Source: an uncultured Alphaproteobacteria bacterium
GTDB taxonomy: Bacteria > Pseudomonadota > Alphaproteobacteria > Rs-D84
DNA: 64,000 bases
Direction of reading: 5' to 3'
Assembly: GCA_944389465.1 (NCBI GenBank)
Contig: CALXML010000003.1
Span: 20,369-84,368, forward strand
Below, piece after piece: positions 5,175 through 51,513 of the stretch (position 1 is the first letter of the stretch; each line of letters opens with the position of its first letter). The notes beneath the pieces were generated by a model, which worked only from the letters and a program-made list of their open reading frames with translations, had not been told where the DNA came from and ran no database searches. A program made the translations under genes and the position numbers.

Positions 5175-5192
5175 GTGTGGTGGGGTATTTGT

Positions 5193-6113
5193 ATGAATAC
5201 TGAATTACAGGATTTAAAAAATGAAATATTTGCACGTCTGCAAGATATTGCCACACGACAAAATTATATTATTCAAAAGGTTGGCGAATTACACAACCAT
5301 GTTACCCGTTTGTATGGATTGACGTGTGATGTTGAAACAATACCCGTGGCCAAGGGACATTTGTTTTTGCAACAACAGGCCATTGTGCGTTTGACATCAA
5401 TGATAGATGCTGATTTACGTAATGCAGGCATTCCATACTTTATGGTTGGTGGTAATTTATTGGGCGCAATGAGAAATGGTTCTTTTATCCCGTGGGACGA
5501 TGATATGGATTTGGGAATAATGCGACCTTATTTTCATTTGGCTGTGAATTTGTTAACTGGCAAATATAACCGTGGGCCTTTTTCTGTTGGGTGGGCAAAG
5601 TGTGGCGGCATTTTCAAAGTGTTTTTTTTGAACAAAGTATGTGTGGATTTATTTCCATGGGATACATATCACACGCGTATGACAACACCAGAAGAAATAC
5701 AGGCTTTTAAAGAAGATTATGTTGCTGCAATGGATGAAGCACGCAGATTTGAAATGGGGGAATCAAAATATAAGTCTTATGAAGAAATCAGCCAAGATAT
5801 GATAATGCATAATATCGGTCCTAATTATATTGATGGCGATATGTTTGATGGTATTGATTGGCAATTATTTCAGGAACGTATTGCTGGATATTATCACAGC
5901 AGAACATGGCGCAAGGAATACATATTGCCATATGGTGAAATAGAATTTTGTGGACATCGTTTTATGGCACCGAATAATCCTGATGCGTGGCTGACAACCA
6001 GATATGGGGATTGGCGGGCGTTTCGTCCGGATTTTGCCAGCCATAAACAGATAAATTGGACTTATGAAGAATTACCAATAGTAAAGAATTTTATTGACGG
6101 TAAAATATTATGA
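5193..6113 (+). CDS. LicD-family phosphotransferase (phosphocholine / ribitol-phosphate transferase family)
   Basis: Motif GGNLLGAMRNGSFIPWDDDMDLGI is typical of LicD. The ATG at 5193 is preferred over the listed GTG at 5175. Confidence 0.7.
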   Translation: MNTELQDLKNEIFARLQDIATRQNYIIQKVGELHNHVTRLYGLTCDVETIPVAKGHLFLQQQAIVRLTSMIDADLRNAGIPYFMVGGNLLGAMRNGSFIPWDDDMDLGIMRPYFHLAVNLLTGKYNRGPFSVGWAKCGGIFKVFFLNKVCVDLFPWDTYHTRMTTPEEIQAFKEDYVAAMDEARRFEMGESKYKSYEEISQDMIMHNIGPNYIDGDMFDGIDWQLFQERIAGYYHSRTWRKEYILPYGEIEFCGHRFMAPNNPDAWLTTRYGDWRAFRPDFASHKQINWTYEELPIVKNFIDGKIL

Positions 6114-6808
6114 ATTTGGTGTTGATTATTGCTGGGGGCAGTGGGGTGCGTATGAACGGACGCGTGCCAAAGCAATTTATGAATATATCTGGGCGGCCGG
6201 TAATAATTCATACTTTAAGTGTTTTTCAAAAAAATAAAAATATTGACGCGATATGTGTTGCTTGTTTGGGTGGGTGGGAAAAATGGTTGCAAAAGTCGGC
6301 TGAAAAATATGGAATAACAAAATTACGGCATATTGCGGCGGGTGGGAAAACCGGTCAGGAATCAATTTTTAATGGCCTGACATTGTTGGGTAATTTATAT
6401 CCGATGGATTCAGTGGTTTTAATTCACGATGCTGTGCGGCCGATGGTATCCGATGAAATTATTAATAATTGTATTCGTGGGGTAAAAAAGTATGGTAATG
6501 CCGTGACCGCAATTGATTGCTATGACGCGATGATGATAACATCTGATGGCAAGACCAGTCATCAATTTATTCCACGTGAATTATTACGTCGGGTCCAAGC
6601 CCCACAGGGTTTTAAATTATCTGATATTTTAATGGCACATAAAATTGCCAATAACAGAAATATTAAAAATACTGTTACTTCGTGTACTTTGATGGCGGAA
6701 TTGGGATGGCCTGTTTATTTTTCACGTGGGTCTGAAAAAAATCTGAAATTAACATACGCCACGGATATAGAAATTTTTCAAGCATTGTTAAACGAGAATG
6801 ATAAATGA
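6110..6808 (+). CDS. IspD/TarI-family cytidylyltransferase (CDP-alditol synthase-like)
   Basis: N-terminal IIAGGSGVRM...VPKQF, and whole-length resemblance to TarI/IspD including the C-terminal NLKLTYATDIEI. The ATGA start overlaps the upstream stop. Confidence 0.75.
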   Translation: MNLVLIIAGGSGVRMNGRVPKQFMNISGRPVIIHTLSVFQKNKNIDAICVACLGGWEKWLQKSAEKYGITKLRHIAAGGKTGQESIFNGLTLLGNLYPMDSVVLIHDAVRPMVSDEIINNCIRGVKKYGNAVTAIDCYDAMMITSDGKTSHQFIPRELLRRVQAPQGFKLSDILMAHKIANNRNIKNTVTSCTLMAELGWPVYFSRGSEKNLKLTYATDIEIFQALLNENDK

Positions 6809-7818
6809 ATGCAATTTTGTTGACAGAATTTGATGATATTTATAAACGCCTTGAATCTGTATTGCCAAAATTGAATAATAAAGCGATTTTGATTACTGGG
6901 GCAACGGGCTTAATAGGGTGTTATTTAGTAAAGTTTTTATTGTATTTAAATGAACGGCATAATATGGGAATTAATATATATGCCACATCAACATCATTGC
7001 AAAAGTTATATGACAGGTTTGGTTCAGAAAATGTGAATTTGCATTATTTGCAAATGGATTTATCTGTGTCGGTAAAATTTCACAGAAAATTTAATTTTGT
7101 TATTCATGCGGCAGGGGTTACCAGCCCTGATGTTTTTGCAAATAATCCTGTTGGGGTGATGCGTACCAATTTAATTGGCACAATGTCTGTGTTGGACAGT
7201 GCCATTATGGCACATGGTGGGCGATTTTTATTTATATCATCAGGTGAAATATATGGTAACAATATTACAGATGTGCCATTTGTTGAAACAGATAATGGAA
7301 ATATAAATTGTACGGTGGTGCGTTCTGGATATCCAGAATCCAAGCGTGCGTGTGAAACATTATGTATGTCGTATGAACAACAATATGGAATACACGTAAA
7401 TGTGGCACGGTTGTGTTATATTTATGGCCCAACAATAACACAGAACAGTATGCGTGTGGATGCACAATGTTTACGTGCCGCGTTAAATGGTGAAAATATT
7501 GTTCTGAATACAGCGGGCAATCAACGCAGAACGTGGTGTTATGTGGCCGATGCAACGGCTGGGATTTTACAGATTTTATTATGTGCAAAATCTGGGGCAG
7601 TGTATAATGTGGCGCATACCAAATCAATCGCAACTATTTTAGAATATGCAACAACGCTGGCAAATATAGCAGGGGTTCGGGTTTGCATATCCACCAATAT
7701 ATATGGGGGTGGAAACAGTATATTGGACGGGACAAAGTTAATTGAATTGGGCTGGCAACCACAATATGATTTACAAACAGGCCTGTTGCATACATTTAAT
7801 ATCAAAAAATCCCAGTGA
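6805..7818 (+). CDS. NAD-dependent epimerase/dehydratase-family (extended SDR) enzyme
   Basis: GATGLIGCYL Rossmann motif and YPESK catalytic motif. ATGA overlap with the upstream gene. Confidence 0.75.
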   Translation: MNAILLTEFDDIYKRLESVLPKLNNKAILITGATGLIGCYLVKFLLYLNERHNMGINIYATSTSLQKLYDRFGSENVNLHYLQMDLSVSVKFHRKFNFVIHAAGVTSPDVFANNPVGVMRTNLIGTMSVLDSAIMAHGGRFLFISSGEIYGNNITDVPFVETDNGNINCTVVRSGYPESKRACETLCMSYEQQYGIHVNVARLCYIYGPTITQNSMRVDAQCLRAALNGENIVLNTAGNQRRTWCYVADATAGILQILLCAKSGAVYNVAHTKSIATILEYATTLANIAGVRVCISTNIYGGGNSILDGTKLIELGWQPQYDLQTGLLHTFNIKKSQ

Positions 7819-7868: not shown

Positions 7869-7896
7869 AAAAAAACGCCCAAATGGGCGTTTTTTT
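7869..7896. terminator. Bidirectional terminator between convergent genes
   Basis: A6-CGCCC-aaat-GGGCG-T7. Confidence 0.75.
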
Positions 7897-8599
7897 ATTT
7901 GTTTTTGAAATATATTTTTCGTTGCGATTCGGATACTGATTCCATTTTATCAAATATATCGTCGGCCGCGGATTCATCAGTTGGGCCATTGCCATTGGAT
8001 GTATAATCCGCACCATTTAATACAATAATGCGACTGGGCATTATGTCGCCACTGTTGCATTCAATGTAATATTTGGACATATCATAATATTTGCCATAAC
8101 ATTTATTATTGACCGTTGCAACATATCCGTAATCGGCCAATTCCTGACACGTGGGTTGTGCGCCATATGTTATTTCGCCGTTTTCCAAATATTCGTCTGC
8201 ATTATCCAAAATTCCATTGCACCAAACACGTACGTATTCGCCGTTAACAGATGCCATTGCACCGTTTTCCTTTGTTTTACGTACACCAAAACAATCGCCG
8301 TTCAGAATGTTGGTGTCAAAATCCTTGTTTATATTTGTGCCGCGTTCTATGTCGTCGCGACCCATTGCAACGGGTGTGTAATCGTCGCCAGAAACCAATG
8401 CGTCGGGACAAATTAATTTCATTCCCCAACAACCCGTTTCAGAATCCCATAATTCACTGTCATATCCTGCGCCCATGGTTGCATAACAATCCGTCGGGTC
8501 CAGTTTGCATACCGTTGGCTGTTCCCACCATGGGGTGGCCGCAAATGCCATTGGCATAATAACCATACACAGCGCAGAAATCGCGAATATTTTTTTCAT
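7895..8599 (-). CDS. Secreted cysteine-rich protein, unknown function
   Basis: Signal peptide MKKIFAISALCMVIMPMAFA; RBS AAGGAAG; sits 83 bp downstream of the 848-aa gene on the same strand. Confidence 0.7.
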   Translation of the reverse strand: MKKIFAISALCMVIMPMAFAATPWWEQPTVCKLDPTDCYATMGAGYDSELWDSETGCWGMKLICPDALVSGDDYTPVAMGRDDIERGTNINKDFDTNILNGDCFGVRKTKENGAMASVNGEYVRVWCNGILDNADEYLENGEITYGAQPTCQELADYGYVATVNNKCYGKYYDMSKYYIECNSGDIMPSRIIVLNGADYTSNGNGPTDESAADDIFDKMESVSESQRKIYFKNK

Positions 8600-8682: not shown

Positions 8683-11229
8683 CTATGGCGAAGATACGGA
8701 TAATTTCCCGATTTGTATGAATGATTTTTCACTGGGTTCGGCACAAAATCCCCACTTGGTATTAGAACCTGTTTCGTCATAGAAATACTTAAATAACTTT
8801 TGACCGGTTTTATCGTGCAGGTCGTCGGGTGTTTGGTTTTCTGGGTCGGTGTTATTATATTTATCAACCCATTGTGTTGATACCCATGTCCCACCCAAAC
8901 GTTCGCATTCCGCAGATAATTGATTTGCCATATCCACACGCACAGTATCCATAACGATGTTAACGTCCTGTAATACACTTTCAGGTATTTTTGCACTGCT
9001 GCTGCCGGAAACGATGGCATCGTATTCCGATGGGCGCACACAGACCTGTGTTGCGTACTTTACCATTTTTTGATATAAACTGCCGATGTAATCGTCGCCA
9101 CAGTCTTGGTCAACTTCTATTCCCTCTTCACCGCCCTGTGGTGGTTGTGTGCCACCGGGGCATTGTGAATCGGCCGGACATGCCAAACACATATTTCCGG
9201 GGGTTGGATTGCCATTCGGTTTCCATACTCCTGTACCAACCTCTTTGGTTGCCATATAATAACCAACGTTACAGGACGTATACTTTTTATATGATGGGCA
9301 TGAATAACCCTTGGACGGTTGAGTGCCACTGCCGCCACCCGGATTTGTTGGGTTGGTTGTTTCAGACCATGTCTTTTGATTGCACCAGTAATTAGATGCG
9401 TATATTGCATCCCCCGGTGCATAAACGCGGCAACCATATGGATATGCATGTAATGTATCGTTGCTGGGGACGGTACACATATCTTGGGCAAAGGCTTCCA
9501 ACAGGGATTGACATTGGGCTTCCAGTTTTTGGTCGGTTATGTCATGCATTGCGGTCAGCAATAATTCCAAACCATTACCATTTGGGTCACCGTATAAATT
9601 ACTGCATGCGTATAATTTTTCTTCACATAATTCTTCGGATAATTCCAGACGGTTACCCAATAATAATTCTTCTTTTATATTACTGAAGTCTTTTAATGAT
9701 TCACTTTGTTCGTCATAACAAGAATTTACAACGTCCAAGCATTCGTTTTTCACAGTGCGGATTTTTTCCTGTTGACCCTGATATATTTCTACTATGGCCT
9801 GACGGACAAATTCATCCCAGACCTCGTCCGCGATGTCGCGACATGTTTCCAGACCGCGTTCTGCATATATACGTTTGTTATTTAATTCGGCAACAATCAT
9901 ACGGTTTGTTGCGTTGGTAAGTACATCGCCATCCAATGATATCTGGTTCCCCAATTCATAAAAGTCGCGGGAATATATCGGTTCGCCAGTGTCACGATTT
10001 AAATAAAGCCCCGTTATGTCCAAACAGTGAACGTAATCTTCGCCACAGGCGGTGTCCGCCGTTATATCGGCACGTACCTGTGCGATACAATCATTAATAG
10101 ATGTTGAATTGTGCGCGTTGTAATTTTCCAGTCTGGCAACGTTCATTTCACGTTCTGTTTCGCGAATACTGCTGTTTGCCTGAACCAATTGGGAATCCAG
10201 ATTATTTAATAACAATGAACAATCGTTTTCAATGTACATCCCATATGCAGAAACAACCATATCCAATGTTGATTGTGATGGACACTGTTCTGATATTAAA
10301 TCAACACACTGTGAATGAACGGCGTTGTACAGTGCTTCGCCAGTCAGGTTGGCTATGTTTTGCCCAGATGCCAAATCAGTTGTTGCCCAGATTTGATTTA
10401 TGTCGCCGGCAATGTCCAATGTGCCCAATGTAGATAAAGATTGACTTTTAGACGAAGATAAAACTTCGCGTATACCGGCCAATTGTTGGGATGATTCGGA
10501 TTTATCTTCGGTTATGGCCAATTCGCCTTCGCTGGCGGTTAACATGGCATTAACTTCTTCGGCCGTTTTGGGTATGACTTCTATGTTCAAATCGTGAAAG
10601 TCCTGTAATTGGCCAGATGCCTGTGACAGGGCGCGTTCGCGTTCCTGAATATCTGTTAATCTGGATGAACATATACAGCGACGATATGTATCATTTGCGG
10701 TTGCGCAAAATTGGTCCATACAGGTAAAGTATGCATTACGGCATTCGTTATATCCAGTTCCAAATGTGTTGGTCACAGTTGATGGTGCAACCGTTGTTGC
10801 ACGTGCCTGTGCGCGTGCACTGCGTGCGACATTGTTGGTGGTTGCACTTCTGGCGGGGGTGTTTGTACCACTGCGCACAACAGTGTTGTTTGATGCCGTG
10901 CGTGGGGATGTGGTTTGACCCTTGGCCGATGTGACCGCAGTGCGGGCCATTGTTGCGGCGCGTGATGTGCCACCCGATATGGCGTTTGTTCTGGATGTTG
11001 AATTTGTTGCAGAATTTCTGGTAACCGTGTTTGTGGATTCGCGTGTTGTGGTGGTTGGGCGATTACTGACCGTTGGGGATGTTATGCGACCCGTTCGCGC
11101 AATTACTGTTGATGCGTTTTCAGATGCAGATTGGTTATCACGGTTAATTACGTTTGTGCCACGAGATGCAGCGTCGGCATTTGCGATGCCGAAAAAACAC
11201 GCAATAATAAAGAGCAAAATGCTTCTCAT
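8683..11229 (-). CDS. Giant secreted Cys-rich protein, CMDQFC family (paralog 1, 848 aa)
   Basis: Signal peptide, then a ~140 aa S/T/R/N-rich low-complexity region, then the core motif ECRNAYFTCMDQFC (10705-10743) with RCICSS shortly after. Helical Cys-pair segments are shared with the three paralogs. The C-terminal part carries GYY/CxxCP repeats. Confidence 0.8.
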   Translation of the reverse strand: MRSILLFIIACFFGIANADAASRGTNVINRDNQSASENASTVIARTGRITSPTVSNRPTTTTRESTNTVTRNSATNSTSRTNAISGGTSRAATMARTAVTSAKGQTTSPRTASNNTVVRSGTNTPARSATTNNVARSARAQARATTVAPSTVTNTFGTGYNECRNAYFTCMDQFCATANDTYRRCICSSRLTDIQERERALSQASGQLQDFHDLNIEVIPKTAEEVNAMLTASEGELAITEDKSESSQQLAGIREVLSSSKSQSLSTLGTLDIAGDINQIWATTDLASGQNIANLTGEALYNAVHSQCVDLISEQCPSQSTLDMVVSAYGMYIENDCSLLLNNLDSQLVQANSSIRETEREMNVARLENYNAHNSTSINDCIAQVRADITADTACGEDYVHCLDITGLYLNRDTGEPIYSRDFYELGNQISLDGDVLTNATNRMIVAELNNKRIYAERGLETCRDIADEVWDEFVRQAIVEIYQGQQEKIRTVKNECLDVVNSCYDEQSESLKDFSNIKEELLLGNRLELSEELCEEKLYACSNLYGDPNGNGLELLLTAMHDITDQKLEAQCQSLLEAFAQDMCTVPSNDTLHAYPYGCRVYAPGDAIYASNYWCNQKTWSETTNPTNPGGGSGTQPSKGYSCPSYKKYTSCNVGYYMATKEVGTGVWKPNGNPTPGNMCLACPADSQCPGGTQPPQGGEEGIEVDQDCGDDYIGSLYQKMVKYATQVCVRPSEYDAIVSGSSSAKIPESVLQDVNIVMDTVRVDMANQLSAECERLGGTWVSTQWVDKYNNTDPENQTPDDLHDKTGQKLFKYFYDETGSNTKWGFCAEPSEKSFIQIGKLSVSSP

Positions 11230-11320
11230 CTATATTTTATATAATGATAACAAAAATATATTTTTATTAAAAGTAATATTTGTCAGAAATAAAAAAATAA
11301 AACCGTCGGATGACGGTTGT

Positions 11321-11569
11321 TTAATTGTTTGCGGTGTCGTTTGATGGGCGACTGCGTTCAACGAATGTTATGCGACCCTTGTCCAAATCATATGGGGTCA
11401 TTTCAACACGAACGTGTTCGCCAACGTTAACCCAAATGCGTGCCTTGCGCATTTTGCCGCACACAGTTGCCAATATTTCATGGCCGTTTTCCAGTTTTAC
11501 ACGAAACATTGTATTGGGTAATTTATCCTCTACAACACCATTAAAAACGATAACATCATCTTTTGCCAT
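11321..11569 (-). CDS. infA: Translation initiation factor IF-1
   Basis: [42 protein letters not shown] is a near-canonical IF-1 sequence. Confidence 0.97.
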
Positions 11570-11712
11570 AAGGTTTCCTATGTTTTTACTTAAAATTTTT
11601 CTGGCATTTATAATATTCTTTTACAGAAAAAATTGCAAGTTGTTTTTATATGCTTGCACCATCGGCAGTGTTTTGATAAAATTATAATAATTACAGCGTA
11701 GGAAGGAATATA

Positions 11713-13893
11713 ATGAGATTAGGAATAATTTTTTCTTTGTTGTGCCTGATGCCGGAATTGGCGATGGCTGCAACCCGCGGGGATACATCTGTTCGTGTCG
11801 GTGTGAACAGAATGGCACAGGCTGGCTTGCATTCTGCCAATATGTCGGTTGATGTGTCTGATGGTGGTGGAAATAAAGTATCCAATTCTATGCCTACGTT
11901 GAATGTTAACCCCGGTGTTTCTGGTTCTGGGGAAAATACCACGCCGGATGTCAGTGGAACAACAAATAATACCGGTAATACCAATAATACGGAACAAACG
12001 CCGGTTGCAAACAGTGAAAATTGTCGTGATGCGTATCGTGCATGTATGGACCAATTTTGTTTGCTGGATGAATCCGAGGGCAGTCGCTGTGCCTGTTCAT
12101 CAAATATAAATCAATCAAAATCACTTATCCAAGAAATCCAAGAAATCCAAGAAGAGGCAGATATTCTGTATACCGAGGGTGTAGAACGCGAACAAATGGG
12201 GGCACAGGCTAAATTAGTCTTTGGTGAAAGCGAGGCCGCGCAAAAAAGTTCCCGTATATCTGGTATTAATTTTGCAGAATGGATAAGCAGCGGAACCGAA
12301 GAAGATGTCAGTTTGGGTTCTGACAGTGATATAGGTGACCCATTGTATGCAATGGCGGCGGAATATTGCGCATCTGAATTAGAGGCCTGTGGCGACAAGG
12401 CCGAAATGGAAGAGGTTTTATACGCACGTATGATTGTGCAGGATTGTAAAACATTTGAATCTTATTTGAATGACCAGAAAACCATTGCGGAGCAAAACAA
12501 ACGCACGGCCGAGGCTGCTGTCCGTCAGGCGCGTTTGGAAATGTTGGATACCACAAATAAATATAATCGTGGTGAATGCTTGTTGGCGTATCGTTCATGT
12601 ATCGCGGACAAGGGTGGTTGTGGTGTAAATTTTGAAAATTGTTTGGATGCTGATTTGTTGCAACGTCGTGCAAATGCGTGCGAAAATGTTTTGGACCAAT
12701 GTATGGCGGTGCGTGAATATGTTTTGCAAGATTGGCAGGACGAAGCAGTCAGTATTTTGGCTGATGCTGCAAAATATGCTGACAGAAATGCGCGTGCAAC
12801 CTGTTTGGCGCGAATCCAATTATGTTTGGAAGATGGTTGTTCCACGGAAACCAATTCTGCATGCTTAACAGATGTTAATGTTGCGGCCGGTGTTTGTCCG
12901 GTTATTGACGAATGTGAGGCGATGATTCCGGGGATTAAATCGGTTGTAAATGATAAATTGGGATATTTGCGTACTCAATTCTGTCAAAATGATGTTGATG
13001 CATGTTTACGTGACAGATGTGGTGAAAACTTTACCGCGCCGGAATGCGTTGGTAAAAGTGCGCTGGAAATTGCCGAATTGTGTCCACAGGATATGTTCCC
13101 ATCGTGCAAAAATGAAACACAATTTGATATTATTGTTCAGGCCGCCATGCTGCAAATGGATTATCAAATGTTACAGGGATGCTTGAACTATTTCAGTGAA
13201 CAATTGGGTGCAGTTTGCGGAACGGATATGTCGTGTTTACCAACCGATACACAAATTGCATCATTGACCAGTGTGCCAGAGGAGCAGGAAGATTTGGCCG
13301 CATTGCGTGAAAGTGTTTTGGCAAATACCGAGGCCGCCGTTGATGAATTTTTTGAACAGTTTGAACAGGACAAAACCGTTGCTGCATGTCAGGACAGTCA
13401 AAAGCCGGCCGACCGCAGCAGTTTGGGCGACAGCGTATTTAATACTGCAAAAATGATTGCACAGATTAATGCTGAAAATCGTTCTATGCGTGAATTGGAA
13501 TCCAAAATTGCGGAACTGTCACGTCAACAGGATTTAGAAGAAGCAGAAGCAAACTGTTATAAATTGTATCAGGTTGAAACACCGGATGAATCTGATAAAA
13601 ATTACAGTTACATCCGCAGTGTTGTGTTTGAACCAGCCCTGCGTAATTGCCATGTTTGCCGTATGCAACAGGTTTGCGAGGTTGGTGGCCAGTCCAAGGG
13701 TGCGGCCGGTGTTCAGGGTGCAGCCGGTGGTTTGGCCGCGGGTGCATCTGCCGGTACAATGGTGTCACCGGGGTGGGGTACTGCAATTGGTGCGGTCGTT
13801 GGTGCGGTTGGCGGATTCTTTGCAGGACGCAGTGCCGGTGGCGAACAAGAATTTTGTCAGGAAATAGAAAGTTGCGAGGATATTAATATGTAA
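11713..13893 (+). CDS. Giant secreted Cys-rich protein, CMDQFC family (paralog 2, 726 aa) with a C-terminal Gly/Ala-rich hydrophobic segment
   Basis: Signal peptide; core NCRDAYRACMDQFC at 12022-12060; shared segments (CENVLDQCMAVREYV etc.) with the 835-aa paralog; ends ...FCQEIESCEDINM. Confidence 0.8.
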   Translation: MRLGIIFSLLCLMPELAMAATRGDTSVRVGVNRMAQAGLHSANMSVDVSDGGGNKVSNSMPTLNVNPGVSGSGENTTPDVSGTTNNTGNTNNTEQTPVANSENCRDAYRACMDQFCLLDESEGSRCACSSNINQSKSLIQEIQEIQEEADILYTEGVEREQMGAQAKLVFGESEAAQKSSRISGINFAEWISSGTEEDVSLGSDSDIGDPLYAMAAEYCASELEACGDKAEMEEVLYARMIVQDCKTFESYLNDQKTIAEQNKRTAEAAVRQARLEMLDTTNKYNRGECLLAYRSCIADKGGCGVNFENCLDADLLQRRANACENVLDQCMAVREYVLQDWQDEAVSILADAAKYADRNARATCLARIQLCLEDGCSTETNSACLTDVNVAAGVCPVIDECEAMIPGIKSVVNDKLGYLRTQFCQNDVDACLRDRCGENFTAPECVGKSALEIAELCPQDMFPSCKNETQFDIIVQAAMLQMDYQMLQGCLNYFSEQLGAVCGTDMSCLPTDTQIASLTSVPEEQEDLAALRESVLANTEAAVDEFFEQFEQDKTVAACQDSQKPADRSSLGDSVFNTAKMIAQINAENRSMRELESKIAELSRQQDLEEAEANCYKLYQVETPDESDKNYSYIRSVVFEPALRNCHVCRMQQVCEVGGQSKGAAGVQGAAGGLAAGASAGTMVSPGWGTAIGAVVGAVGGFFAGRSAGGEQEFCQEIESCEDINM

Positions 13894-13895
13894 CC

Positions 13896-13925
13896 ACGGG
13901 GGATTTTCCCCCTGTGGACATTTTT
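13896..13925 (+). terminator. Weak hairpin / partial terminator between paralogs 2 and 3
   Basis: CCACGGGGGA-tttt-CCCCCTGTGG (one bulge) followed by a T-rich tract. Confidence 0.4.
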
Positions 13926-13953
13926 GCATTTTATGTAATCTGGAGAGAGCATA

Positions 13954-16461
13954 ATGAAAATAAAGTACATAATTGGTTCTGTTGTTGGATTGGCGGCGTT
14001 GGTGGTGGCACTGGATTCATATGGGTTAACCACGTCCAGTTCAAAACGTCAATCTGCGATACAGCAGGGGACAACCGTCCGTACCAAGGTAGAGGCAACC
14101 GGATTATATGACCAAGCATGTTATGATGCTTATTTTGGTTGTATGGACCAATTTTGTATAACTGATAATGCCAGTGGTGGTGCGTGTAACTGCAGCGATA
14201 CTGTTTTGGAATATAACGAAGAATTGGCGTCTATTGAAAGTATTTTGGACGAAGCAAATCGTCTGCGCACAGAAGAGATTGAACGTGTCAAGGCTGGTGC
14301 AGATGCTGATATTATTTTTACTGGGGAACGTCGCTATGACGCAGATGGCAATATTCTGGCCGAAGACGAATTAACCGAAGAAGAGGAAAAAGAAAAACGG
14401 CGTGCAGATTTATTGGCGATATTTAATACCAGCATATATTCCGAAGACCCCTTTGAAGAACAAAGTACTGTTGGCAGTATGGCTGATATGATGGGGGCGG
14501 AATTGTATAATGCTGCAAATGAATTATGTATGGCACAGGTGCCGGATTCTTGCGCGGGGGATATTGCTTTTCTGCAACAATTATATTCACGTCAAATAAC
14601 ATCTGATTGTTTGGGGTATAAAAATTCACTGGCCCAGCAACGCGCAAATGCAGAAAATGAATTGGCCGCCGCTGAATCCGAAGTGCGCACCGCATTAAAG
14701 GAGAGTTTTGAAAGTGCCAACAAATATGATTTGGGCCAATGTATGGTTGAATTTAGAAATTGTATGCAGACAGAAGATGCCTGTGGCGAAGATTGGGAAA
14801 ATTGCGTGATGACCGTCGCGTCTGAAAATATGCAGAATAACGAGGCCACCAGTACCGCTGGCACAACGGTTGAAACTGTTGATACATATGATATAACGGC
14901 GTCAACAATGGAAATGTTAAACGCCAAACGTCCAATTTGTGAAAATGTTTTGGACCAATGTGTGGCGGTGCGTGACCAAGTGTGGCCTAATTTCCTGCGC
15001 GAAGCCGCCCCAACAATCAAGGTGGCGGAAAGTATTGTTGAATCAAAATTCCGTCAATCGTGTTTAACTGATATTTCTGAATGTATTCAAACAGCGTGTC
15101 GTGATGATATCGCAGGCAAGGGCGTTGCCACAATGGACGCCTGTTTGTCGCGTCCGGAAATGGCACGCAGTTTTTGCAAGGTTGAAATTGACCCCTGTGA
15201 ACGTATGGAACCACTGATTTGGGGGTATGTAGAAGATAAGTTGGCCGCAATGCGTGTTGATGCCTGTACACAAGAGGTCAAAGATTGCTTTACGGCCGAT
15301 ACCCGCTGTGGGCCAAACTTTGAAAACTGTATCGGTATGGATTATGAATATATCCATGATATTTGCCCGATTGACAGTTTGGTTGTGTGCAAGGCGAATA
15401 ATCCTGCATTTTCCATGGATGATTTGGATGATATGCTGATGGGATTATATTTGAATATTGATAATGCCATGATGGAACAGTGCCAGAATATTGTGGATAA
15501 GAAAATGGCCGAGGTTTGTGGCAGTACATCGGATTGTAACCGTTTCGCAGCCGATGATACAATTGGTACTGGGTCTTTGCGCAGTCAAAAGGATGGCACA
15601 ACATACCGTGTTACGGGTATGATATCTTTTGGCAGCCTTAAGATGGGTGACAGTGATGGCGAAACTGTTTCTGATGGTGATGGTGGTACAATGCGAATTG
15701 GCCCCGGTGAAATCGCAATTGGTGATTATTTGGAAAAAATCCGCGAACGTAATGCCGGTGTTGATAATGCCGAAGGGATAATTTCTTCTATTGAAGAAGA
15801 ATTGAACAATATTGCGGGGACTATTAATCGCACTATTGAAATGATTGAACAAGACCCTGAAATTCAATACTGTGTTAATGGGCGTGATTTGTCGCAAATT
15901 ACCGGTGATGCAGGCGATAAAACCAGTGGGCGTTTCCCGAACCTGTTAAATCAGGTTAAAATGCAAATTGCTGTTTCTGCATTGCGACAGGCACAGGATA
16001 ATTATAACAATAAATTAAATCACGAAATTGCCGAAGCCACCAAAAATGCATCTGCTGATTTGGCGCAATATATGTGCCAGAAAATTGCTGAAAATGGTGG
16101 GGCAGGTGGCGGTGATATAAATGCGTCAACACCGTTGGCCGCGCCATATGCAATCAGTTACGATGTGGGGTCGGGGCTGACAACCGAAGATTTGGCATCC
16201 GGTGGTGCGGGCGTTCTGCAGGCGGATGGTGTGACATTTACGAACAGTGGCTATCTGGGCGGGTCCAGTTTTAATGGGGGCGGTATGACCAAAACTGTGC
16301 GTGCAATATTCAGCCGTGAAACCAGAACATGTCATATCTGTACACAAACTGTTACCCAGAATTGTAAAACCACGGGCAGCAGCAGTTGGTTCCACAACAG
16401 CAGAAATACCAGCTGTACGACCGAGGCATCAGACGAGGTTTGTGAAGACATCGTGATGTAA
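13954..16461 (+). CDS. Giant secreted Cys-rich protein, CMDQFC family (paralog 3, 835 aa)
   Basis: RBS GGAGAG; N-terminal hydrophobic signal; core ACYDAYFGCMDQFC at 14119-14157; ends ...EVCEDIVM. Confidence 0.8.
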   Translation: MKIKYIIGSVVGLAALVVALDSYGLTTSSSKRQSAIQQGTTVRTKVEATGLYDQACYDAYFGCMDQFCITDNASGGACNCSDTVLEYNEELASIESILDEANRLRTEEIERVKAGADADIIFTGERRYDADGNILAEDELTEEEEKEKRRADLLAIFNTSIYSEDPFEEQSTVGSMADMMGAELYNAANELCMAQVPDSCAGDIAFLQQLYSRQITSDCLGYKNSLAQQRANAENELAAAESEVRTALKESFESANKYDLGQCMVEFRNCMQTEDACGEDWENCVMTVASENMQNNEATSTAGTTVETVDTYDITASTMEMLNAKRPICENVLDQCVAVRDQVWPNFLREAAPTIKVAESIVESKFRQSCLTDISECIQTACRDDIAGKGVATMDACLSRPEMARSFCKVEIDPCERMEPLIWGYVEDKLAAMRVDACTQEVKDCFTADTRCGPNFENCIGMDYEYIHDICPIDSLVVCKANNPAFSMDDLDDMLMGLYLNIDNAMMEQCQNIVDKKMAEVCGSTSDCNRFAADDTIGTGSLRSQKDGTTYRVTGMISFGSLKMGDSDGETVSDGDGGTMRIGPGEIAIGDYLEKIRERNAGVDNAEGIISSIEEELNNIAGTINRTIEMIEQDPEIQYCVNGRDLSQITGDAGDKTSGRFPNLLNQVKMQIAVSALRQAQDNYNNKLNHEIAEATKNASADLAQYMCQKIAENGGAGGGDINASTPLAAPYAISYDVGSGLTTEDLASGGAGVLQADGVTFTNSGYLGGSSFNGGGMTKTVRAIFSRETRTCHICTQTVTQNCKTTGSSSWFHNSRNTSCTTEASDEVCEDIVM

Positions 16462-16998: not shown

Positions 16999-17379
16999 TT
17001 ATTCAATCGGACGTACAATTTGTCCGTCGCCTGTAACGGGAAAACCACCGGAAATACTGTCAGTCATTGGACATGCATTGGTAAAAACGTATGAACCAGT
17101 CCGGTCGCTGTATCTGGTATTTGCCGGTGCATACATTATGCATGAACCCGACGGGTTTGATACCAGACAACTGTCCGCAGTACCGGCGGATACATATCCA
17201 GTGGGACATGCACTGTCCGCAATTGTCATATATTCTTCCTCTATTGCTATATAGCCATCCGGACAAGATGTAGATGGTGTAATTATCGCCTGTACTGGCG
17301 GTCCGATAATAACACCTCCATCCAGTGCAAATGCCGACACAGGAAAACACAATATTAATAAAATCAATATTCGTTTCAT
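16999..17379 (-). CDS. P2-family small secreted Cys protein (copy a, with a C-terminal extension)
   Basis: Start at MKRILILLIL (RBS GGAG). Conserved core TSCPDGYIAIEEEYMTIADSACPTGYVSAGTADSCLVSNPSGSCIMYAP shared with 20415..20693 and 37541..37822. Confidence 0.75.
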   Translation of the reverse strand: MKRILILLILCFPVSAFALDGGVIIGPPVQAIITPSTSCPDGYIAIEEEYMTIADSACPTGYVSAGTADSCLVSNPSGSCIMYAPANTRYSDRTGSYVFTNACPMTDSISGGFPVTGDGQIVRPIE

Positions 17380-17390
17380 CGCAATCTCCA

Positions 17391-17837
17391 TTAGTCAGAT
17401 AAATTGGAAAATAATGCATTCCTAATGGTATTATCAACACCACCGCATACTCTGGCACACTGGTTTATACACGCAGCATAAGTTGTTGATGAACTATAAG
17501 GCGGCCTAACCCATTGCGAAACTGCCGGACTTATCATTTTACACCAACAGTATTTATTAGAACTTGTGATTGATGAATTAACACTTATGTTTTCTAATAC
17601 ATCGCCTGCTTGGCCTTCATTCGCGGCACATACACCGACACCGACCAAATCAACAGTTGTTGTTCCTGTATTACACGTTGCATACCAGTCAATTGCGCCA
17701 CCAGTTCCTAGACTGATAGCGGTATTATTTTCGCATGAAACAATATTGTCCCCAAATGCCACACATTTGGTGACGGCAATGGCCGGTGGGATTGTGGCCA
17801 CACAAATCAGGCCGGCAATTAATAAATGTTTTTTCAT
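17391..17837 (-). CDS. P1-family small secreted Cys protein (copy a)
   Basis: Start at MKKHLLIAGLICVATIPPAIA (RBS GGAGA). Conserved NKYCWCKMISPAVSQWV and C-terminal FSNLSD. Paralogs at 19984..20400 and 37837..38289. Confidence 0.75.
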   Translation of the reverse strand: MKKHLLIAGLICVATIPPAIAVTKCVAFGDNIVSCENNTAISLGTGGAIDWYATCNTGTTTVDLVGVGVCAANEGQAGDVLENISVNSSITSSNKYCWCKMISPAVSQWVRPPYSSSTTYAACINQCARVCGGVDNTIRNALFSNLSD

Positions 17838-18046
17838 ATTCTTATCTCCATTTTCTTTTGTTTTTGAATAAAGAAAAACCACCAGAAATATTCAGGTGGT
17901 TGGAGTTTAAGAACAATCCAATAAATTGCGTGTTTTATTCTGTATATTCAACACACTCCAACCATTATGGTTGGATTAGTTTTTCGTCCGTATCACAGAC
18001 GTATTGGATGGGTTCTTAAGCCCAATATGTGAACACCACATATCGC
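17838..18046 (-). promoter_or_regulatory. Type-1 structured 5' leader, copy A (subtype II), upstream of P1a/P2a
   Basis: Promoter TTGATT (18079-18074), 16-nt spacer, TAATAA (18057-18052). Helices: TTAAGAAC/GTTCTTAA, TCCAACC/GGTTGGA, GTGTGTT/AACACGC, CAAT/ATTG. Terminator CCACC/GGTGG plus a U-run (17874-17899). Confidence 0.65.
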
Positions 18047-18865: not shown

Positions 18866-19699
18866 ATGACTTGGACAATCTTGGTTCTGGTGATTGGTAT
18901 TCTGTTGTTCCTGTTTGGTGGTATGTTGCTGCCAAAGGGCGATGAAAAGAAACCATCCGCTGGAAAAATCGTTGCAAAAAAATGCATCACTGTAATTGCT
19001 ATTATCCTGATTTCAGGCAGTATATGCCGTTTGTATATGCCATATTACCTGACCGCTGTTAATCCAGTAATCGTTCAGGAAATGGTCAACGGTATGCAGG
19101 AACAGCAACAGGCCGAAAAAAACAAACAAATTCGTAAATTTGTCCGTTCCGAAGGCGACAAAATGATGCGTGATGCCCCAGTTTTGGGTAATCGCGATGC
19201 GAAAAAGACAATTTATGTTTGGACAGACTTCTCTTGCCCATTCTGCCGTCGTGTACATGGTGAAATTGAACGCGTATTGGCCGACCGTGACGATACACGC
19301 GTAGTTATCAAGAATTTCTCTATCCACGGGCCATTGTCTGATGCACCGGCCAAGGCTGTGATTGCTGCAAAGTTGCAAGACCCAGCAAAGGCTGCTGAAT
19401 TGACAAATATGTTGATGACACGTGAATTTTACACCCAAGAAGATTTGCAAGACCAATCCACATTGGCGGACAAGGTTGAAGCAAACGTTATGAAAATGGC
19501 CAAAGAAGCCGGCTTGGATACTGAAAAGTTGAAAGAAGACATGAACGGCGATGTTGTTGCACGTGAAATGCGTGACGTTCGTGATTTGGCACAACGCTTT
19601 GAAATCAGCGGTACACCATTCTTAATCATTGGTGAACAGGCTTTTCCGGGCGCAATCCCAGCCGACCAAATAGAGGCTGCATTGGATGAAGCAAAATAA
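18866..19699 (+). CDS. Membrane-anchored DsbA-family thiol:disulfide oxidoreductase
   Basis: N-terminal TM helix; thioredoxin-fold active site FSCPFCRRVH; C-terminal ISGTPFLIIG. Confidence 0.8.
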   Translation: MTWTILVLVIGILLFLFGGMLLPKGDEKKPSAGKIVAKKCITVIAIILISGSICRLYMPYYLTAVNPVIVQEMVNGMQEQQQAEKNKQIRKFVRSEGDKMMRDAPVLGNRDAKKTIYVWTDFSCPFCRRVHGEIERVLADRDDTRVVIKNFSIHGPLSDAPAKAVIAAKLQDPAKAAELTNMLMTREFYTQEDLQDQSTLADKVEANVMKMAKEAGLDTEKLKEDMNGDVVAREMRDVRDLAQRFEISGTPFLIIGEQAFPGAIPADQIEAALDEAK

Positions 19700-19983: not shown

Positions 19984-20400
19984 ATGAAAAAACATTTATT
20001 AATTGCCGGCCTGATTTGCGTGGCCACAATCCCATCGGCCGTGGCCGTGACCAAATGCGTAAAACTGTCATCTTCATCAACGTGTTCCAATTATGCGGGC
20101 GATGGGTCAAATTGGTCAATAACATGTGACGGAGTGCCTGTAAGCGGTGTTATATTTTGTGGCTCGCAGGATGGTGGTTCACGGGGTGCAACATCCACCG
20201 CTGTCGCAATCAGTTCAACCATTGAGGACAACAAATATTGCTGGTGTAAAATGACATCACCCGCAGTGTCGCAATGGGTCTTCGTCAACGAGTTAACGTC
20301 AGCCAGTCAATGCAAAACACTTTGCACATTCAACTGTGCGTATGGCACTCAATCCCAAGCATCTATGCGGTCTGCGATGTTCAGCAATCTGTCTGACTAA
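19984..20400 (+). CDS. P1-family small secreted Cys protein (copy b)
   Basis: MKKHLLIAGLICVATIPSAVA signal; NKYCWCKMTSPAVSQWV; C-terminal FSNLSD; RBS AAGGAGG. Confidence 0.8.
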   Translation: MKKHLLIAGLICVATIPSAVAVTKCVKLSSSSTCSNYAGDGSNWSITCDGVPVSGVIFCGSQDGGSRGATSTAVAISSTIEDNKYCWCKMTSPAVSQWVFVNELTSASQCKTLCTFNCAYGTQSQASMRSAMFSNLSD

Positions 20401-20414
20401 ACAGGGGGACGAAT

Positions 20415-20693: not shown

Positions 20694-20730
20694 ACGGCAA
20701 AGTTTGTCGGCAACCGACAATTATCAAAAT

Positions 20731-20758: not shown

Positions 20759-20772
20759 AATGTTGCAAAATA

Positions 20773-48249: not shown

Positions 48250-51200
48250 TTATCCGCCACCACTGTATTCAATAATCCAGTTTGTTGGGGTGTCACAGGC
48301 AGTACCGTTGTTTGTTGCCCAGCCCCAATTACCCTTACCGTCATTGTATCCATTGGTACATGTGGACTGGTCGCCGCGGTAAAAACTGGTCGGTATTTGG
48401 GTGATGGCGTCCACGTTATCATATTGTGGTGATATGTATGTACCACCGTTCGTTTTCTTGATAACGACGATATAATTCCCGTTACAGTTCAGGGTTTTGC
48501 CCGATGGGAATGTAGAGGTTTCGTCACTCGCATTGCCCATTGTACCGTTACAGAACAGGTATGCAATGTCAGCAGGCCCGTAATATGTATTATTGGATGG
48601 CGGTTTAAATGCCACAACGAATTTTGCGGTATCCGGCAGGCACAGACCGCCGTTTTGGTCAATTTTTCCATCTACTTCGGTGCTGTCGGCCGGTATATTA
48701 CTGGTCGTGTTTTCGTTACCCCAGTATCCGGATGTAGCATTCCAATTAACCCCTTGGATGCTGGACTGTATTTTACCCAAACAACAATTTCCAAAAGAGT
48801 CGCGTGCGCCAGCGACTGGGTCATTGTCGGTCGGTGTACGACAACAGTTATTGGAATCTGTTGTCGTTGGCACACGCCAGTAAGTATTGGTTGGGCAGGT
48901 CAGACCATCGTCGGATACGTCAGTACGTGAAACGCAGTATGAAGTTTGCTTGTTTGAGTCCCATTGTGATATATACCCCGGACCGCATGATGTGTCACGA
49001 CAACTGTCAACTTCGTCATCTGTGCCGGTGTTTTTGGCAAACCATGACAATAATGTTTCTGTATCTTCGTCAACTGGCATTTTGATTTGGTTGTGCGAAT
49101 CTGCCGCGGACAAATTGGTTACTGGGTGTGCCTCGCAATTGCCCCATACTTTTTCAGCCAAACGGCATATTTGGCATTCTGGGGTGTTAACCTTGGTATA
49201 TGTAATGTCGTTTGCAAGGGTGCCGTCGTCGTTGGTGGCAAACTGCATACCGCAATCATCTGCACATATATCGTATATGCAGTTGGCATCGTCTGTTGTT
49301 GTGCAAGATGTGCCGGACCAGTTTGTTTGCAATTCGTCGTTTGTAATGTCGGTGTTTGTGTCACCGTATAGCAGTTCATAGAATGAACCATTATCGTCAA
49401 TTGCGCCGTCCGCAATTTGCAATTCTGTGATTTTATTAATTGCATCTGTGCCGGCGTCAGCAACGCATTCCAAAACTTCGTCCCAACAGGCTGTGCGGTT
49501 AATAATGGCCTTTCTGTTAACGGATGTTTGAATATCTTCGCACAGGCCAAAGTTACCAGAAATTGATTTACATGATTGGATGATACAGTTACGGCCAACC
49601 TCGCGACAGGTTTGCATAATTGTGTCATATGTTTTGTCGGTGGCGATTTCTGTCATACCCTCGTTCCAGATGTCGCCACTGTCAACAGTGTTCAACAATG
49701 CGGTACAGGCAGACTGAACCTCGGAACACATTTGTTTTACGGTTTTGTCGGCCTGTACACCAAAAATTGATAATGCGCGGGCATCAAAATCTTCCAGCGA
49801 TTCAGCGGCATCAGATAAACACTGTGTCGTCAGGGTTGTACAACTTTGGCGAACTTCTTCCAGTTTGCTTTCTTGGGCCAATTTGATTTGTGCCAACGCG
49901 TCTTCTAGGAACGCGTCCCATACGCTGTCGGCGATGTCTTGGCAATTTTCAGTGGCGGATTCCAAATATTTCTTTTTGGAATTTAAGTATGATACGAATT
50001 TCGCATTTCCGGGGGCACCCGTCCATGTTTGATTGGAATCAGGACGGGTGATTAAATTACCCAAATTGGCCAAGTTTGATGTTAATATCGCTTCGCCGGT
50101 GGATGGGTCAATGTATTGGCCACTGATATCCAAGCATTGTTGTAAATCATCCCCACAAACGGATGTGTCGGTTAACATATCCAGCATTTTTTTCTTGCAC
50201 GTTAAAATGTCGTCGGAATTATTTTTCTGGTATGTGTCCAAACGGGATATGTCCAACAGAGCACTGCCTTCGCGGATTTTTTCGCGGGCCAAATCCTGTT
50301 GGGTTTGGTATGCCTTGGCAACGGTGTTACAATCCTGTTCAATTGCCATTTGGTATCCACTTTCTATGATGTCCAATTCGTCAGGGGTGCATACCTCCAA
50401 CGCCATTTCGCGGCATACCGGCAGGGCGGCCGAATATAATTCTGTGCCGGATTTTGTTGTGGTGGATGCGCCGGCCAATGAGTCAACCGTGTCAAAGGCA
50501 GCCGCTGCATTTAATGATAATGATATTGGCGACAAATCAGTATCAAAAGAACTGGTGTCAAATGTCGCGTTTAATTTTTCTGAAATGTCATCCAATAATT
50601 CCTTGGACGATGATGTATCCTCTTGCTGAAAGGCCAGTTCGCCCTCGGTCGCTTGGAATATAGACTCGGCATCTTCTTTGTCCATATTTACCGTCAGCAG
50701 GCGTTGGTTAAAGTCCAATAATTTATCCTCTACGGTGGCCAATTGTTCCTTGATATCATCAAATTCGTTTACCCGTGACGAGCATGCACAACGCTTTAAT
50801 TGGCTGTCCTTGTTGGCGCAAAATTCATCCATACAACTGTAATATACTTCGCGGCATTTGGTATAGTCGCGGTTTATTATTTCCTCGGCCGACAGGGTGC
50901 CTGCGCGTGATACACGGGCGGATTGTGCCACGCCAGTGCGACGGGCGGTTGTTGTTGTATGCGTTTGTGGTGTTGTGGCGGCACGTGAAACAGATGCCGC
51001 GCGTGAAATTGTGGCAGTGGCACTGCGCGCGCCATTCGCTGATGTATTTGTATCTGTGCGGTTTATGTTCGCAGTGCGTGAAACAGTTGATACGGCGTTA
51101 CGTGATACGGCCGTGCGTGACGGCGTTGATACGACGGATGATTTAGATACAGTGGCACGTGGTAAAACGTTTGTTGCACTTCTGGTTGTGGTGGATTGAT

Positions 51201-51513
51201 TTGATGTTTCCGTTGATGTGCGTGTGCCACCATCGCGCACAACAACGTTTGCGCGTGACGATGTATTTGATTGTGTACGATTACGCACAGATTGGCCCGA
51301 TTGATTCAGGTTTGTGGAACGTGATATGCCGGATGATTCAATTTTCTGTGTGTCAGATGTTTGGACCGATTGTTCGCGTGATACAGTTGTTGTTGCACCA
51401 CGGCGTGTTGCGGCACGCGCAATGGTATCCGCATCATCAGCAGATGCAATGTTTGGCGCGCTGAATACCAGTAATGCCAGACATCCCGCAAAGATTTGTT
51501 TGATTCCTTTCAT
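48250..51513 (-). CDS. Giant secreted Cys-rich protein, CMDQFC family (paralog 4, 1087 aa)
   Basis: Signal peptide, then a ~190 aa S/T/R/N-rich region, then the core KCREVYYSCMDEFC (50818-50856) with RCACSS shortly after. Shared helical Cys-pair segments. The C-terminal ~350 aa is Cys-dense. Confidence 0.8.
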   Translation of the reverse strand: MKGIKQIFAGCLALLVFSAPNIASADDADTIARAATRRGATTTVSREQSVQTSDTQKIESSGISRSTNLNQSGQSVRNRTQSNTSSRANVVVRDGGTRTSTETSNQSTTTRSATNVLPRATVSKSSVVSTPSRTAVSRNAVSTVSRTANINRTDTNTSANGARSATATISRAASVSRAATTPQTHTTTTARRTGVAQSARVSRAGTLSAEEIINRDYTKCREVYYSCMDEFCANKDSQLKRCACSSRVNEFDDIKEQLATVEDKLLDFNQRLLTVNMDKEDAESIFQATEGELAFQQEDTSSSKELLDDISEKLNATFDTSSFDTDLSPISLSLNAAAAFDTVDSLAGASTTTKSGTELYSAALPVCREMALEVCTPDELDIIESGYQMAIEQDCNTVAKAYQTQQDLAREKIREGSALLDISRLDTYQKNNSDDILTCKKKMLDMLTDTSVCGDDLQQCLDISGQYIDPSTGEAILTSNLANLGNLITRPDSNQTWTGAPGNAKFVSYLNSKKKYLESATENCQDIADSVWDAFLEDALAQIKLAQESKLEEVRQSCTTLTTQCLSDAAESLEDFDARALSIFGVQADKTVKQMCSEVQSACTALLNTVDSGDIWNEGMTEIATDKTYDTIMQTCREVGRNCIIQSCKSISGNFGLCEDIQTSVNRKAIINRTACWDEVLECVADAGTDAINKITELQIADGAIDDNGSFYELLYGDTNTDITNDELQTNWSGTSCTTTDDANCIYDICADDCGMQFATNDDGTLANDITYTKVNTPECQICRLAEKVWGNCEAHPVTNLSAADSHNQIKMPVDEDTETLLSWFAKNTGTDDEVDSCRDTSCGPGYISQWDSNKQTSYCVSRTDVSDDGLTCPTNTYWRVPTTTDSNNCCRTPTDNDPVAGARDSFGNCCLGKIQSSIQGVNWNATSGYWGNENTTSNIPADSTEVDGKIDQNGGLCLPDTAKFVVAFKPPSNNTYYGPADIAYLFCNGTMGNASDETSTFPSGKTLNCNGNYIVVIKKTNGGTYISPQYDNVDAITQIPTSFYRGDQSTCTNGYNDGKGNWGWATNNGTACDTPTNWIIEYSGGG

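Follow-up and report, generated by a model that had tools for sequence, protein, structure and literature searches.

A lineage-restricted family of cysteine-rich exported proteins with a predicted disulfide-stapled helical core in gut Alphaproteobacteria

The stretch of DNA analysed here, termed the window, covers 64,000 nucleotides (positions 20,369 to 84,368 of contig CALXML010000003.1, assembly GCA_944389465.1) from an uncultured alphaproteobacterium of the Rs-D84 lineage. It encodes four paralogous, cysteine-rich proteins, denoted A, B, C, and D, which an earlier note on this DNA had singled out as a family. The open reading frames (ORFs) lie at the positions and on the strands assigned in that note (Table 1) and encode 848, 726, 835, and 1087 amino acids (aa), respectively, lengths for which its word "giant" was an overstatement. 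A and D form one pair (32% identity over 542 aa, BLASTP E = 2e-64) and B and C another (30% over 476 aa, E = 9e-54), with cross-pair E-values of 1e-12 to 1e-22 and overall paralog identities of 20–32%. Common to all four is a region of ~450–500 aa that starts at the signature C-[RY]-[DNE]-[AV]-Y-x-x-C-M-D-[QE]-F-C, followed 9 residues on by C-x-C-S. This succession, already described in the note, occurs once per paralog, and the signature is found in no other ORF of the window. A hidden Markov model (HMM) search of all six-frame ORFs of the window uncovered no further hidden copies.

The N-terminus of each paralog bears one hydrophobic segment and an AXA-like cleavage site, in agreement with the signal peptides proposed before, and no hydrophobic 19-mer occurs outside that segment in A, B, C, or D. 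Lipoprotein anchoring was judged unlikely by inspection. Many signal peptides of the family have a cysteine near position 11, yet the residues around it form no consistent lipobox, and a canonical AXA site lies downstream of it. Between signal peptide and core runs a tract of low complexity. The description of such a region in every paralog holds for the long tracts of A (137 aa) and D (194 aa) and for the 78 aa of B, rich in N/S/G/T/V, and is generous for C, where the tract is only ~30 aa. The remainder of the proteins is strongly acidic, with about twice as many Asp and Glu as Arg and Lys. B alone carries a Gly-zipper-like segment, conserved in 73 B orthologs; its aa 666–708 match the Gly-zipper Pfam models PF13488 and PF13441 with 17 and 14.6 bits, under the cut-offs of 25 and 28.9.

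The cysteines are the most constant feature of the family. Sixteen are invariant across 148 diverse members, and consecutive cysteines are often spaced as CX6C (positions i and i+7), with 4, 8, 10, and 6 cases in A, B, C, and D versus 0.8–1.35 in shuffled sequences (maximum 5–6, 2000 trials). In the predicted models, the CX6C cysteines sit on helices. Of 116 diverse members, 97 have an even number of mature cysteines (binomial p = 9e-14); the number is exactly 36 in 65 of 66 species for B and in 73 of 75 for C. Variable cysteine columns are gained and lost jointly, as pairs (phi up to 0.96). Invariance, even parity, and paired gain and loss argue that the cysteines form disulfides, and the view that A–D are exported proteins whose cysteines behave as disulfides is supported at the level of sequence. 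The use of even parity is modelled on an approach reportedly taken by Dutton et al. in 2008. Heme or metal binding by the cysteines was rejected, as there is no CxxCH motif and the parity favours disulfides.

The gene for a DsbA-like oxidoreductase, its CPFC site intact, lies 2.4 kb from the cluster. The enzyme is not a family member and would be the oxidase of A–D; it has an N-terminal membrane anchor, an extension of ~100 aa, the CPFC motif, and a cis-Pro loop. With signal peptides, a bias to even cysteine counts, and a DsbA gene, A–D have the marks of Dsb-dependent exported disulfide proteins.

The predicted structures agree with the helical segments of the earlier picture. The AlphaFold2 model of A (aa 150–848, 88-sequence alignment) has a mean predicted local distance difference test (pLDDT) score of 83.2, with 332 residues at or above 90. 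Helices, the longest of 56 and 49 residues, make up nearly all of it, alongside an irregular cysteine-rich insert and a small alpha/beta end. The model of C, built from a shallower alignment, is less confident (pLDDT 68.8) and has the same helical core together with a beta-rich C-terminal module, whose beta segment is short, polar, cysteine-containing, and of low confidence in the model. The peptides quoted in the earlier note as examples of the stapled helices are all present, CENVLDQC[MV]AVR being confined to B and C.

By sequence and by structure, A–D are outside any characterised domain family, a conclusion that the searches support and that the note had anticipated. Pfam, NCBIfam, PHROGs, and PADLOC return only sub-threshold noise for the four proteins. 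The best such Pfam matches are Dynamin_M (18.5 bits, cut-off 28.5) and Gly-zipper_Omp (17 bits, cut-off 25); MnmE_helical, ZorA, and LeoBC (18.8 bits on the Gly-rich tail of B) are likewise at noise level, and NCBIfam has no match near threshold. None of 120 close homologs carries a precomputed Pfam domain, and PDB sequences searched with family profiles of 4 and 88 sequences (hmmsearch) give no match at E ≤ 1. Pfam detects no Sel1 (PF08238) or TPR repeat in A–D or in 46 diverse members. In A–D it also finds no autotransporter beta-barrel (PF03797) or YadA anchor, although an autotransporter elsewhere in the window is readily detected; no peptidoglycan-binding domain; no OmcB/OmcA domain at E ≤ 1; and no RTX, SLH, or other S-layer domain. 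Foldseek with the A model reaches E = 0.13 at best against PDB, with template modelling (TM) scores of at most 0.14 to generic long-helix proteins, and E = 0.16 against BFVD; with the C model, the best PDB match has E = 1.9. Judged from the models, the core is apparently a new disulfide-stapled helical architecture, new at the sensitivity of Foldseek and PDB. The literature on Enterousia, Rs-D84, and cysteine-rich envelopes yielded no account of the family, the 2023 Enterousia genome paper lying outside that search.

Profiling with HMMs, a check that the note had proposed, places the family in a single lineage. When 1.84 billion cluster representatives (50% identity) were searched exhaustively with a profile built from the four cores, 877 proteins scored E ≤ 1e-3 and, of these, 541 scored E ≤ 1e-30; members are 407–1186 aa long with ~4% Cys. 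Those with a named source are all "hypothetical protein [Alphaproteobacteria bacterium]" from gut alphaproteobacterial metagenome-assembled genomes (MAGs) of Enterousia / Rs-D84. Scanning a single genome for each GTDB species with a pattern adds at least 569 confirmed matches. Close homologs (89–100% identical) come from gut MAGs, one of them Candidatus Enterousia intestinigallinarum, and, apart from two evidently mis-binned records, every locus taken from a species-representative genome belongs to Enterousia or to a gut MAG labelled "uncultured Alphaproteobacteria/Rickettsiales". As far as these searches reach, the family is a previously uncharacterised one restricted to small-genome gut Alphaproteobacteria of Enterousia / Rs-D84. 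Some of the 46 diverse members scanned bear Ephrin_rec_like or Listeria-Bacteroides repeats in their variable part, which are typical of extracellular proteins and so fit an extracellular location.

Throughout the order Rs-D84, which includes Enterousia, genomes are smaller than ~1 Mb (PMC12306168). Its members lack the tricarboxylic acid cycle, respiration, most biosynthesis, and standard uptake systems, and are proposed to be obligate symbionts or parasites whose cell interactions might involve "hypothetical membrane-bound proteins" (PMC12306168).

The locus is as stable as the proteins. In 80 species-level loci compared by tblastn, the order orf234(-), A(-), infA(-), B(+), C(+) is found wherever the flank suffices, orf234 being a small exported protein discussed below. 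Ortholog identities over these loci are 51–76% for A, 65–87% for B, 62–89% for C, and 83–95% for infA. A, infA, B, and C are still together in a relative only 37–42% identical, which indicates that A–D are ancient paralogs, each a stable ortholog. The infA gene, encoding initiation factor IF-1, does lie inside the cluster, between A and B. The hint that this position carries meaning did not hold up: infA looks like a syntenic bystander, with no functional tie to the family indicated and a conserved synteny of the kind expected in a small, stable genome. A palindromic hairpin between infA and A scores on both strands. Between B and C, a strong terminator-like hairpin means that the tandem genes may be separate transcription units.

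Conservation differs along and among the paralogs. Per-column values are 0.7–0.96 along the whole of mature B and C, which also have a C-terminal CH[VI]C module in common and close with C-E-D-[IV]-x-M (B, 72 of 73 orthologs; C, 72 of 76). The N-terminal tracts vary freely (0.1–0.3). The C-terminal third of A is variable (0.2–0.6), with a nonsynonymous divergence (dN) 3–4 times that of the core. In the core, dN is ~0.06, synonymous divergence (dS) is saturated, and dN/dS is 0.03–0.08. There was no sign of positive selection, with every region below a dN/dS of 0.4 and dS saturated even against the nearest species. As conserved core genes under strong purifying selection, A–D are certainly real genes.

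Gene conversion among the paralogs, which the note had suggested checking, was rejected. The sole likeness at the DNA level (blastn) is a 38-bp patch of B and C, 95% identical, that encodes the invariant peptide CENVLDQC[MV]AVR. Its identity is 0.77 within genomes and 0.76 between them, and because the two are the same, the patch is explained by an identical peptide and codon bias.

A departs from even parity. Its Enterousia orthologs have 29 conserved mature cysteine columns, and the count is odd in 61 of 68 species, changing by steps of two; distant A-like proteins mostly have 28. All seven Enterousia-specific cysteines lie within the variable insert (aa 616–710). The neighbouring orf234 is syntenic in essentially all species and has 9 mature cysteines in all 35 countable orthologs, and a distant relative with an even-cysteine A-like protein has no orf234 homolog adjoining. 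The simplest reading of the conserved odd counts is that A and orf234 are probably joined by an intermolecular disulfide. The window encodes more small signal-peptide ORFs with 4.5–11% Cys and no Pfam domain, several with odd mature counts (21, 5, 9, 17, 9), which hints at intermolecular disulfides among such proteins too. Two of these ORFs (17391-17882 and 37837-38310) are paralogs with 46% identity.

Table 1. Features of the window, with positions counted from its first nucleotide
Feature	Position	Strand	Description
Paralog A, 848 aa	8683..11229	(-)	signal peptide, 137-aa basic S/T/R/N tract, helical core aa ~160-600
Paralog A, C-terminal part			variable Cys-rich insert aa ~605-715, then C-terminal region; 29 mature Cys (odd)
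Signature in A	10669..10743	(-)	CRNAYFTCMDQFC...CIC, aa 163-187
Tract of A	10750..11166	(-)	rich in T/A/S/N/R, poorly conserved, net charge ~+12
Invariant Cys, numbering of A			163, 170, 175, 185, 187, 308, 316, 337, 381, 395, 402, 463, 497, 504, 535, 542
Paralog B, 726 aa	11713..13893	(+)	signal peptide, 78-aa N/S/G-rich tract, helical core
Paralog B, C-terminal part			CH[VI]C module, Gly-zipper-like segment, terminal CEDINM; 36 mature Cys
Signature in B	12022..12096	(+)	CRDAYRACMDQFC...CAC, aa 104-128
38-bp patch in B	12679-12716		
Gly-zipper-like segment of B	13684..13842	(+)	aa ~658-710; conserved across species, Pfam matches sub-threshold
Paralog C, 835 aa	13954..16461	(+)	N-terminal hydrophobic helix (signal peptide or anchor), short tract, helical core
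Paralog C, C-terminal part			beta-rich module, terminal CEDIVM; 36 mature Cys
Signature in C	14119..14193	(+)	CYDAYFGCMDQFC...CNC, aa 56-80
38-bp patch in C	14938-14975		
Paralog D, 1087 aa	48250..51513	(-)	signal peptide, 194-aa basic S/T/R tract, helical core
Paralog D, C-terminal part			long Cys-rich region; 42 mature Cys
Signature in D	50782..50856	(-)	CREVYYSCMDEFC...CAC, aa 220-244
Tract of D	50863..51438	(-)	S/T/R/A-rich, basic, net charge ~+15
orf234	7895..8599	(-)	exported, Cys-rich, 234 aa; 84 bp downstream of A, same strand; no known domain
infA (IF-1)	11321..11569	(-)	between A and B
Hairpin between infA and A	11301-11318		palindromic
Terminator-like hairpin between B and C	13894..13917	(+)	9-bp stem, 7 GC pairs, T-run
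DsbA-like oxidoreductase	18866..19699	(+)	membrane-anchored, CPFC active site; presumed oxidase
Small Cys-rich exported ORF	4395-5174	(+)	
Small Cys-rich exported ORF	16999-17391	(-)	
Small Cys-rich exported ORF	17391-17882	(-)	
Small Cys-rich exported ORF	20336-20959	(+)	
Small Cys-rich exported ORF	24275-24802	(-)	
Small Cys-rich exported ORF	33572-34531	(-)	
Small Cys-rich exported ORF	37837-38310	(-)	
Small Cys-rich exported ORF	46131-47363	(-)	
Autotransporter	103-4191	(+)	Chlamydia polymorphic-membrane-protein repeats, 0% Cys
LicD-family transferase, IspD/TarI-like cytidylyltransferase, NAD-dependent epimerase/dehydratase	5175-7818	(+)	in series beside the cluster
tRNA-Leu(AAG)	51599-51682	(-)	immediately upstream of D
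57-bp tandem repeat	51670-51805		2.4 copies, 96% matches; overlaps 5' end of tRNA-Leu(AAG)
129-aa ORF	51529-51918	(-)	over tRNA/repeat region; probably spurious
Pom-like porin	51968-53440	(+)	matches Protochlamydia outer membrane protein family (Pom)
Alpha-2-macroglobulin (bacterial, 1930 aa) and PBP1C-type penicillin-binding protein	54955-63139	(-)	paired

The wider window holds housekeeping genes typical of alphaproteobacteria (a CcrM-like methylase, ClpX, ClpB, PolA, and PGK) along with many envelope proteins. The row of LicD-family transferase, IspD/TarI-like cytidylyltransferase, and epimerase genes looks like a module for decoration with ribitol-phosphate or phosphocholine, one that might conceivably act on the S/T-rich tracts of A and D. 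The pairing of a bacterial alpha-2-macroglobulin with PBP1C is well known from host-associated bacteria as a periplasmic defence against proteases, and here it is kept in a genome of less than 1 Mb. On the other side of D from its tRNA and tandem repeat, four independent metagenome assemblies with an identical D protein all stop ~70–90 bp past the D stop codon, which suggests that the DNA downstream of D (~48060-48250), towards the ORFs at 47456-48061 and 46131-47363, is repetitive or varies between strains.

The localisation signals, composition, and conservation pattern of A–D, together with the partner-dependent lifestyle of the lineage (PMC12306168), make the note's suggestion of a structural or host-interaction component of the envelope the most plausible reading. 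In the explanation favoured here, held with moderate confidence, A–D most likely belong to one conserved assembly in the cell envelope, stabilised by disulfides and serving structure or attachment. Each paralog would be exported by Sec via its N-terminal signal peptide and then oxidised in the periplasm, presumably by a DsbA-type enzyme. It would fold to an elongated, strongly acidic, near all-helical core of ~450 residues, with the helices taken from modelling. The statistics suggest that this core is locked by eight invariant disulfides and by lineage-specific pairs, many of them heptad-spaced CX6C staples. B and C, near-invariant over their full length and sharing the CH[VI]C module and the CED[IV]xM end, could serve as an envelope-proximal base, with the Gly-zipper-like segment of B as a possible membrane-insertion element. 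In A and D, the basic, disordered, S/T/R-rich N-terminal tethers could attach to anionic polymers of the envelope, and the more variable cysteine-rich C-terminal modules might face outward and bind partners. One presumably unpaired cysteine in the variable insert of Enterousia A probably forms the disulfide with its co-oriented neighbour orf234. Such an assembly could be either periplasmic or exposed at the surface.

A bolder version of the envelope assembly is possible and is offered tentatively. The family would define a new disulfide-stapled helical fold and build a partly covalently cross-linked envelope or attachment structure of Rs-D84, with an invariant base of B and C, outward arms of A and D, the A–orf234 disulfide, and other small proteins with odd cysteine counts. 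It would be a functional analogue of the chlamydial outer membrane complex that evolved independently.

Several points weigh against an envelope or attachment assembly, whose function is itself read from sequence, models, and lifestyle. The signal peptides were called by eye and with simple rules rather than a dedicated predictor. The Gly-zipper matches of B fall under the Pfam thresholds. Disulfide pairing is derived statistically, and the A–orf234 bond draws solely on parity and synteny, so that homodimers or a free thiol are alternatives explaining the odd counts equally well. The organism is thought to be anaerobic and to lack a respiratory chain (PMC12306168), which makes the re-oxidation of DsbA puzzling. 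Finally, neither a signal for translocation across the outer membrane nor a beta-barrel anchor or lipobox could be recognised in A–D, and no partner from a known secretion system came to light. A Sec substrate halts in the periplasm by default, and exposure at the surface is therefore only inferred.

The missing outer-membrane export or anchoring signal makes a strictly periplasmic scaffold the main rival. A–D would then form a periskeleton or a spacer between outer membrane and peptidoglycan, with B tethered to the membrane by its Gly-zipper, a possibility that deserves tentative credence. A Sec signal without any outer-membrane export or anchor feature is what such a scaffold calls for. The extreme conservation of B and C is not that of surface antigens, long rigid helices would suit a spacer, and the PBP1C, SLT, and OmpA-like genes indicate a normal peptidoglycan envelope. 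The variable C-terminal module of A and the Ephrin_rec_like or Listeria-Bacteroides repeats of some members sit poorly with a purely periplasmic place, as does the failure to detect a peptidoglycan-binding domain.

Other functions fare less well. That A–D are exported, helical, and large, in an organism presumed to be a parasite or symbiont, would also suit secreted alpha-helical toxins or effectors, such as pore-formers acting on a host or partner cell, and Foldseek gives a very weak match to NheA (E = 9.2, TM 0.08). This match is non-significant, however, and neither an amphipathic or hydrophobic pore-forming hairpin nor a hydrophobic 19-mer beyond the signal peptide is present. Typical toxin loci look unlike those of A–D, where four orthologs stay single-copy and syntenic over ~80 species under strong purifying selection, with no secretion-system genes nearby; a toxin is improbable. 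Binders that capture ligands or nutrients, functionally SusD-like, might offset the missing standard transporters of a lineage without the usual uptake systems (PMC12306168), and both the helical fold and a weak SusD sequence match (E = 2.7) point that way. The SusD match is at chance level, though; no TonB-dependent transporter or ABC partner adjoins the cluster, and rod-like helices in proteins of 700–1100 aa are atypical of binding proteins, so that a binder is quite improbable. It is very improbable that the cysteines bind metals or clusters, or that the family consists of variable antigens diversified by recombination. The high cysteine content with CxC and CxxC motifs, the multiple paralogs, and the 38-bp stretch of B and C at 95% would be in keeping with one or the other. 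Against metals stand the even parity, the paired gain and loss of cysteines, export, the nearby DsbA gene, and the want of a CxxCH heme motif; against antigens, paralogs that are 20–32% identical with stable orthologs, and a patch whose within- and between-genome identities speak against conversion.

Among known systems, the disulfide-stabilised outer membrane complex of chlamydiae offers an instructive comparison. Like its OmcB and OmcA (PMC6752827), A–D are Sec-exported proteins with ~4–5% Cys from a small-genome, host-dependent bacterium that encodes DsbA, and members with odd cysteine counts could cross-link between molecules. The chlamydial cysteine-rich envelope proteins work with a DsbA/DsbB redox pair (PMC6752827). 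The differences are considerable. OmcB and OmcA have no sequence or structural similarity to A–D, whose core is predicted to be all-helical and whose even parity suggests that most cysteines pair within the molecule; here, moreover, peptidoglycan machinery is present and no developmental cycle is known. The analogy is worth pursuing because two envelope proteins of chlamydial type are encoded in the window of this alphaproteobacterium: an autotransporter whose repeats are those of Chlamydia polymorphic membrane proteins, and a porin like Pom of Protochlamydia.

Three further groups also count among the nearest functional analogies. The Hcp proteins of Helicobacter (Sel1-like) are also secreted helical proteins with disulfide-stapled helix pairs in a small-genome, gut-associated bacterium, whereas A–D are much larger, with a non-repetitive core, very long helices, and a different (CX6C) spacing. 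Twin-CX9C/CX3C (CHCH) proteins in the intermembrane space of mitochondria resemble A–D in placing cysteines at a fixed helical periodicity, in locking neighbouring helices by disulfides, and in export to an oxidising compartment. CHCH proteins, however, are ~10 kDa single helical hairpins oxidised by Mia40/Erv1, whereas A–D have 700–1100 aa, CX6C spacing, DsbA as presumed oxidase, and no homology to them. Plasmodium DBL proteins and trypanosome VSG are exported, largely helical, disulfide-stabilised, and present as multiple paralogs in host-dependent organisms, but A–D match neither in Pfam or Foldseek and are not hypervariable, with four stable ortholog groups and no gene conversion. Outside these groups, Gram-negative S-layer proteins anchored through an N-terminal region, such as Caulobacter RsaA and Aeromonas VapA, are, like A–D, large, acidic, exported products of conserved structural genes with a distinct N-terminal region that possibly binds polymers. 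They are usually Cys-poor, unlike A–D, and no dedicated exporter as in S-layer systems was found near A–D. The family belongs to none of the systems compared, as the domain, fold, repeat, anchor, and recombination tests all failed.

Enterousia and its Rs-D84 relatives, as yet uncultured, are widespread in the guts of humans, livestock, birds, and termites. They have no obvious route to make or import most building blocks, and how they attach to their partners and exploit them is a question on which A–D may bear. The four genes take up ~10.5 kb, roughly 1% of such a genome. Retained in every species examined, strongly constrained by purifying selection, and without a functionally or structurally characterised relative, A–D are prime candidates for a lineage-defining envelope or attachment apparatus, and they offer concrete targets for antibodies, cryo-electron tomography, metaproteomics, and structural work. 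The disulfide-stapled core, with its 16 invariant cysteines and CX6C spacing, makes the family relevant to fold discovery and to the question of how proteins fold oxidatively in an anaerobe that apparently does not respire. Without amounting to a paradigm shift, the family is a concrete and testable candidate for the machinery that defines the envelope or attachment of this abundant and uncultured lineage.

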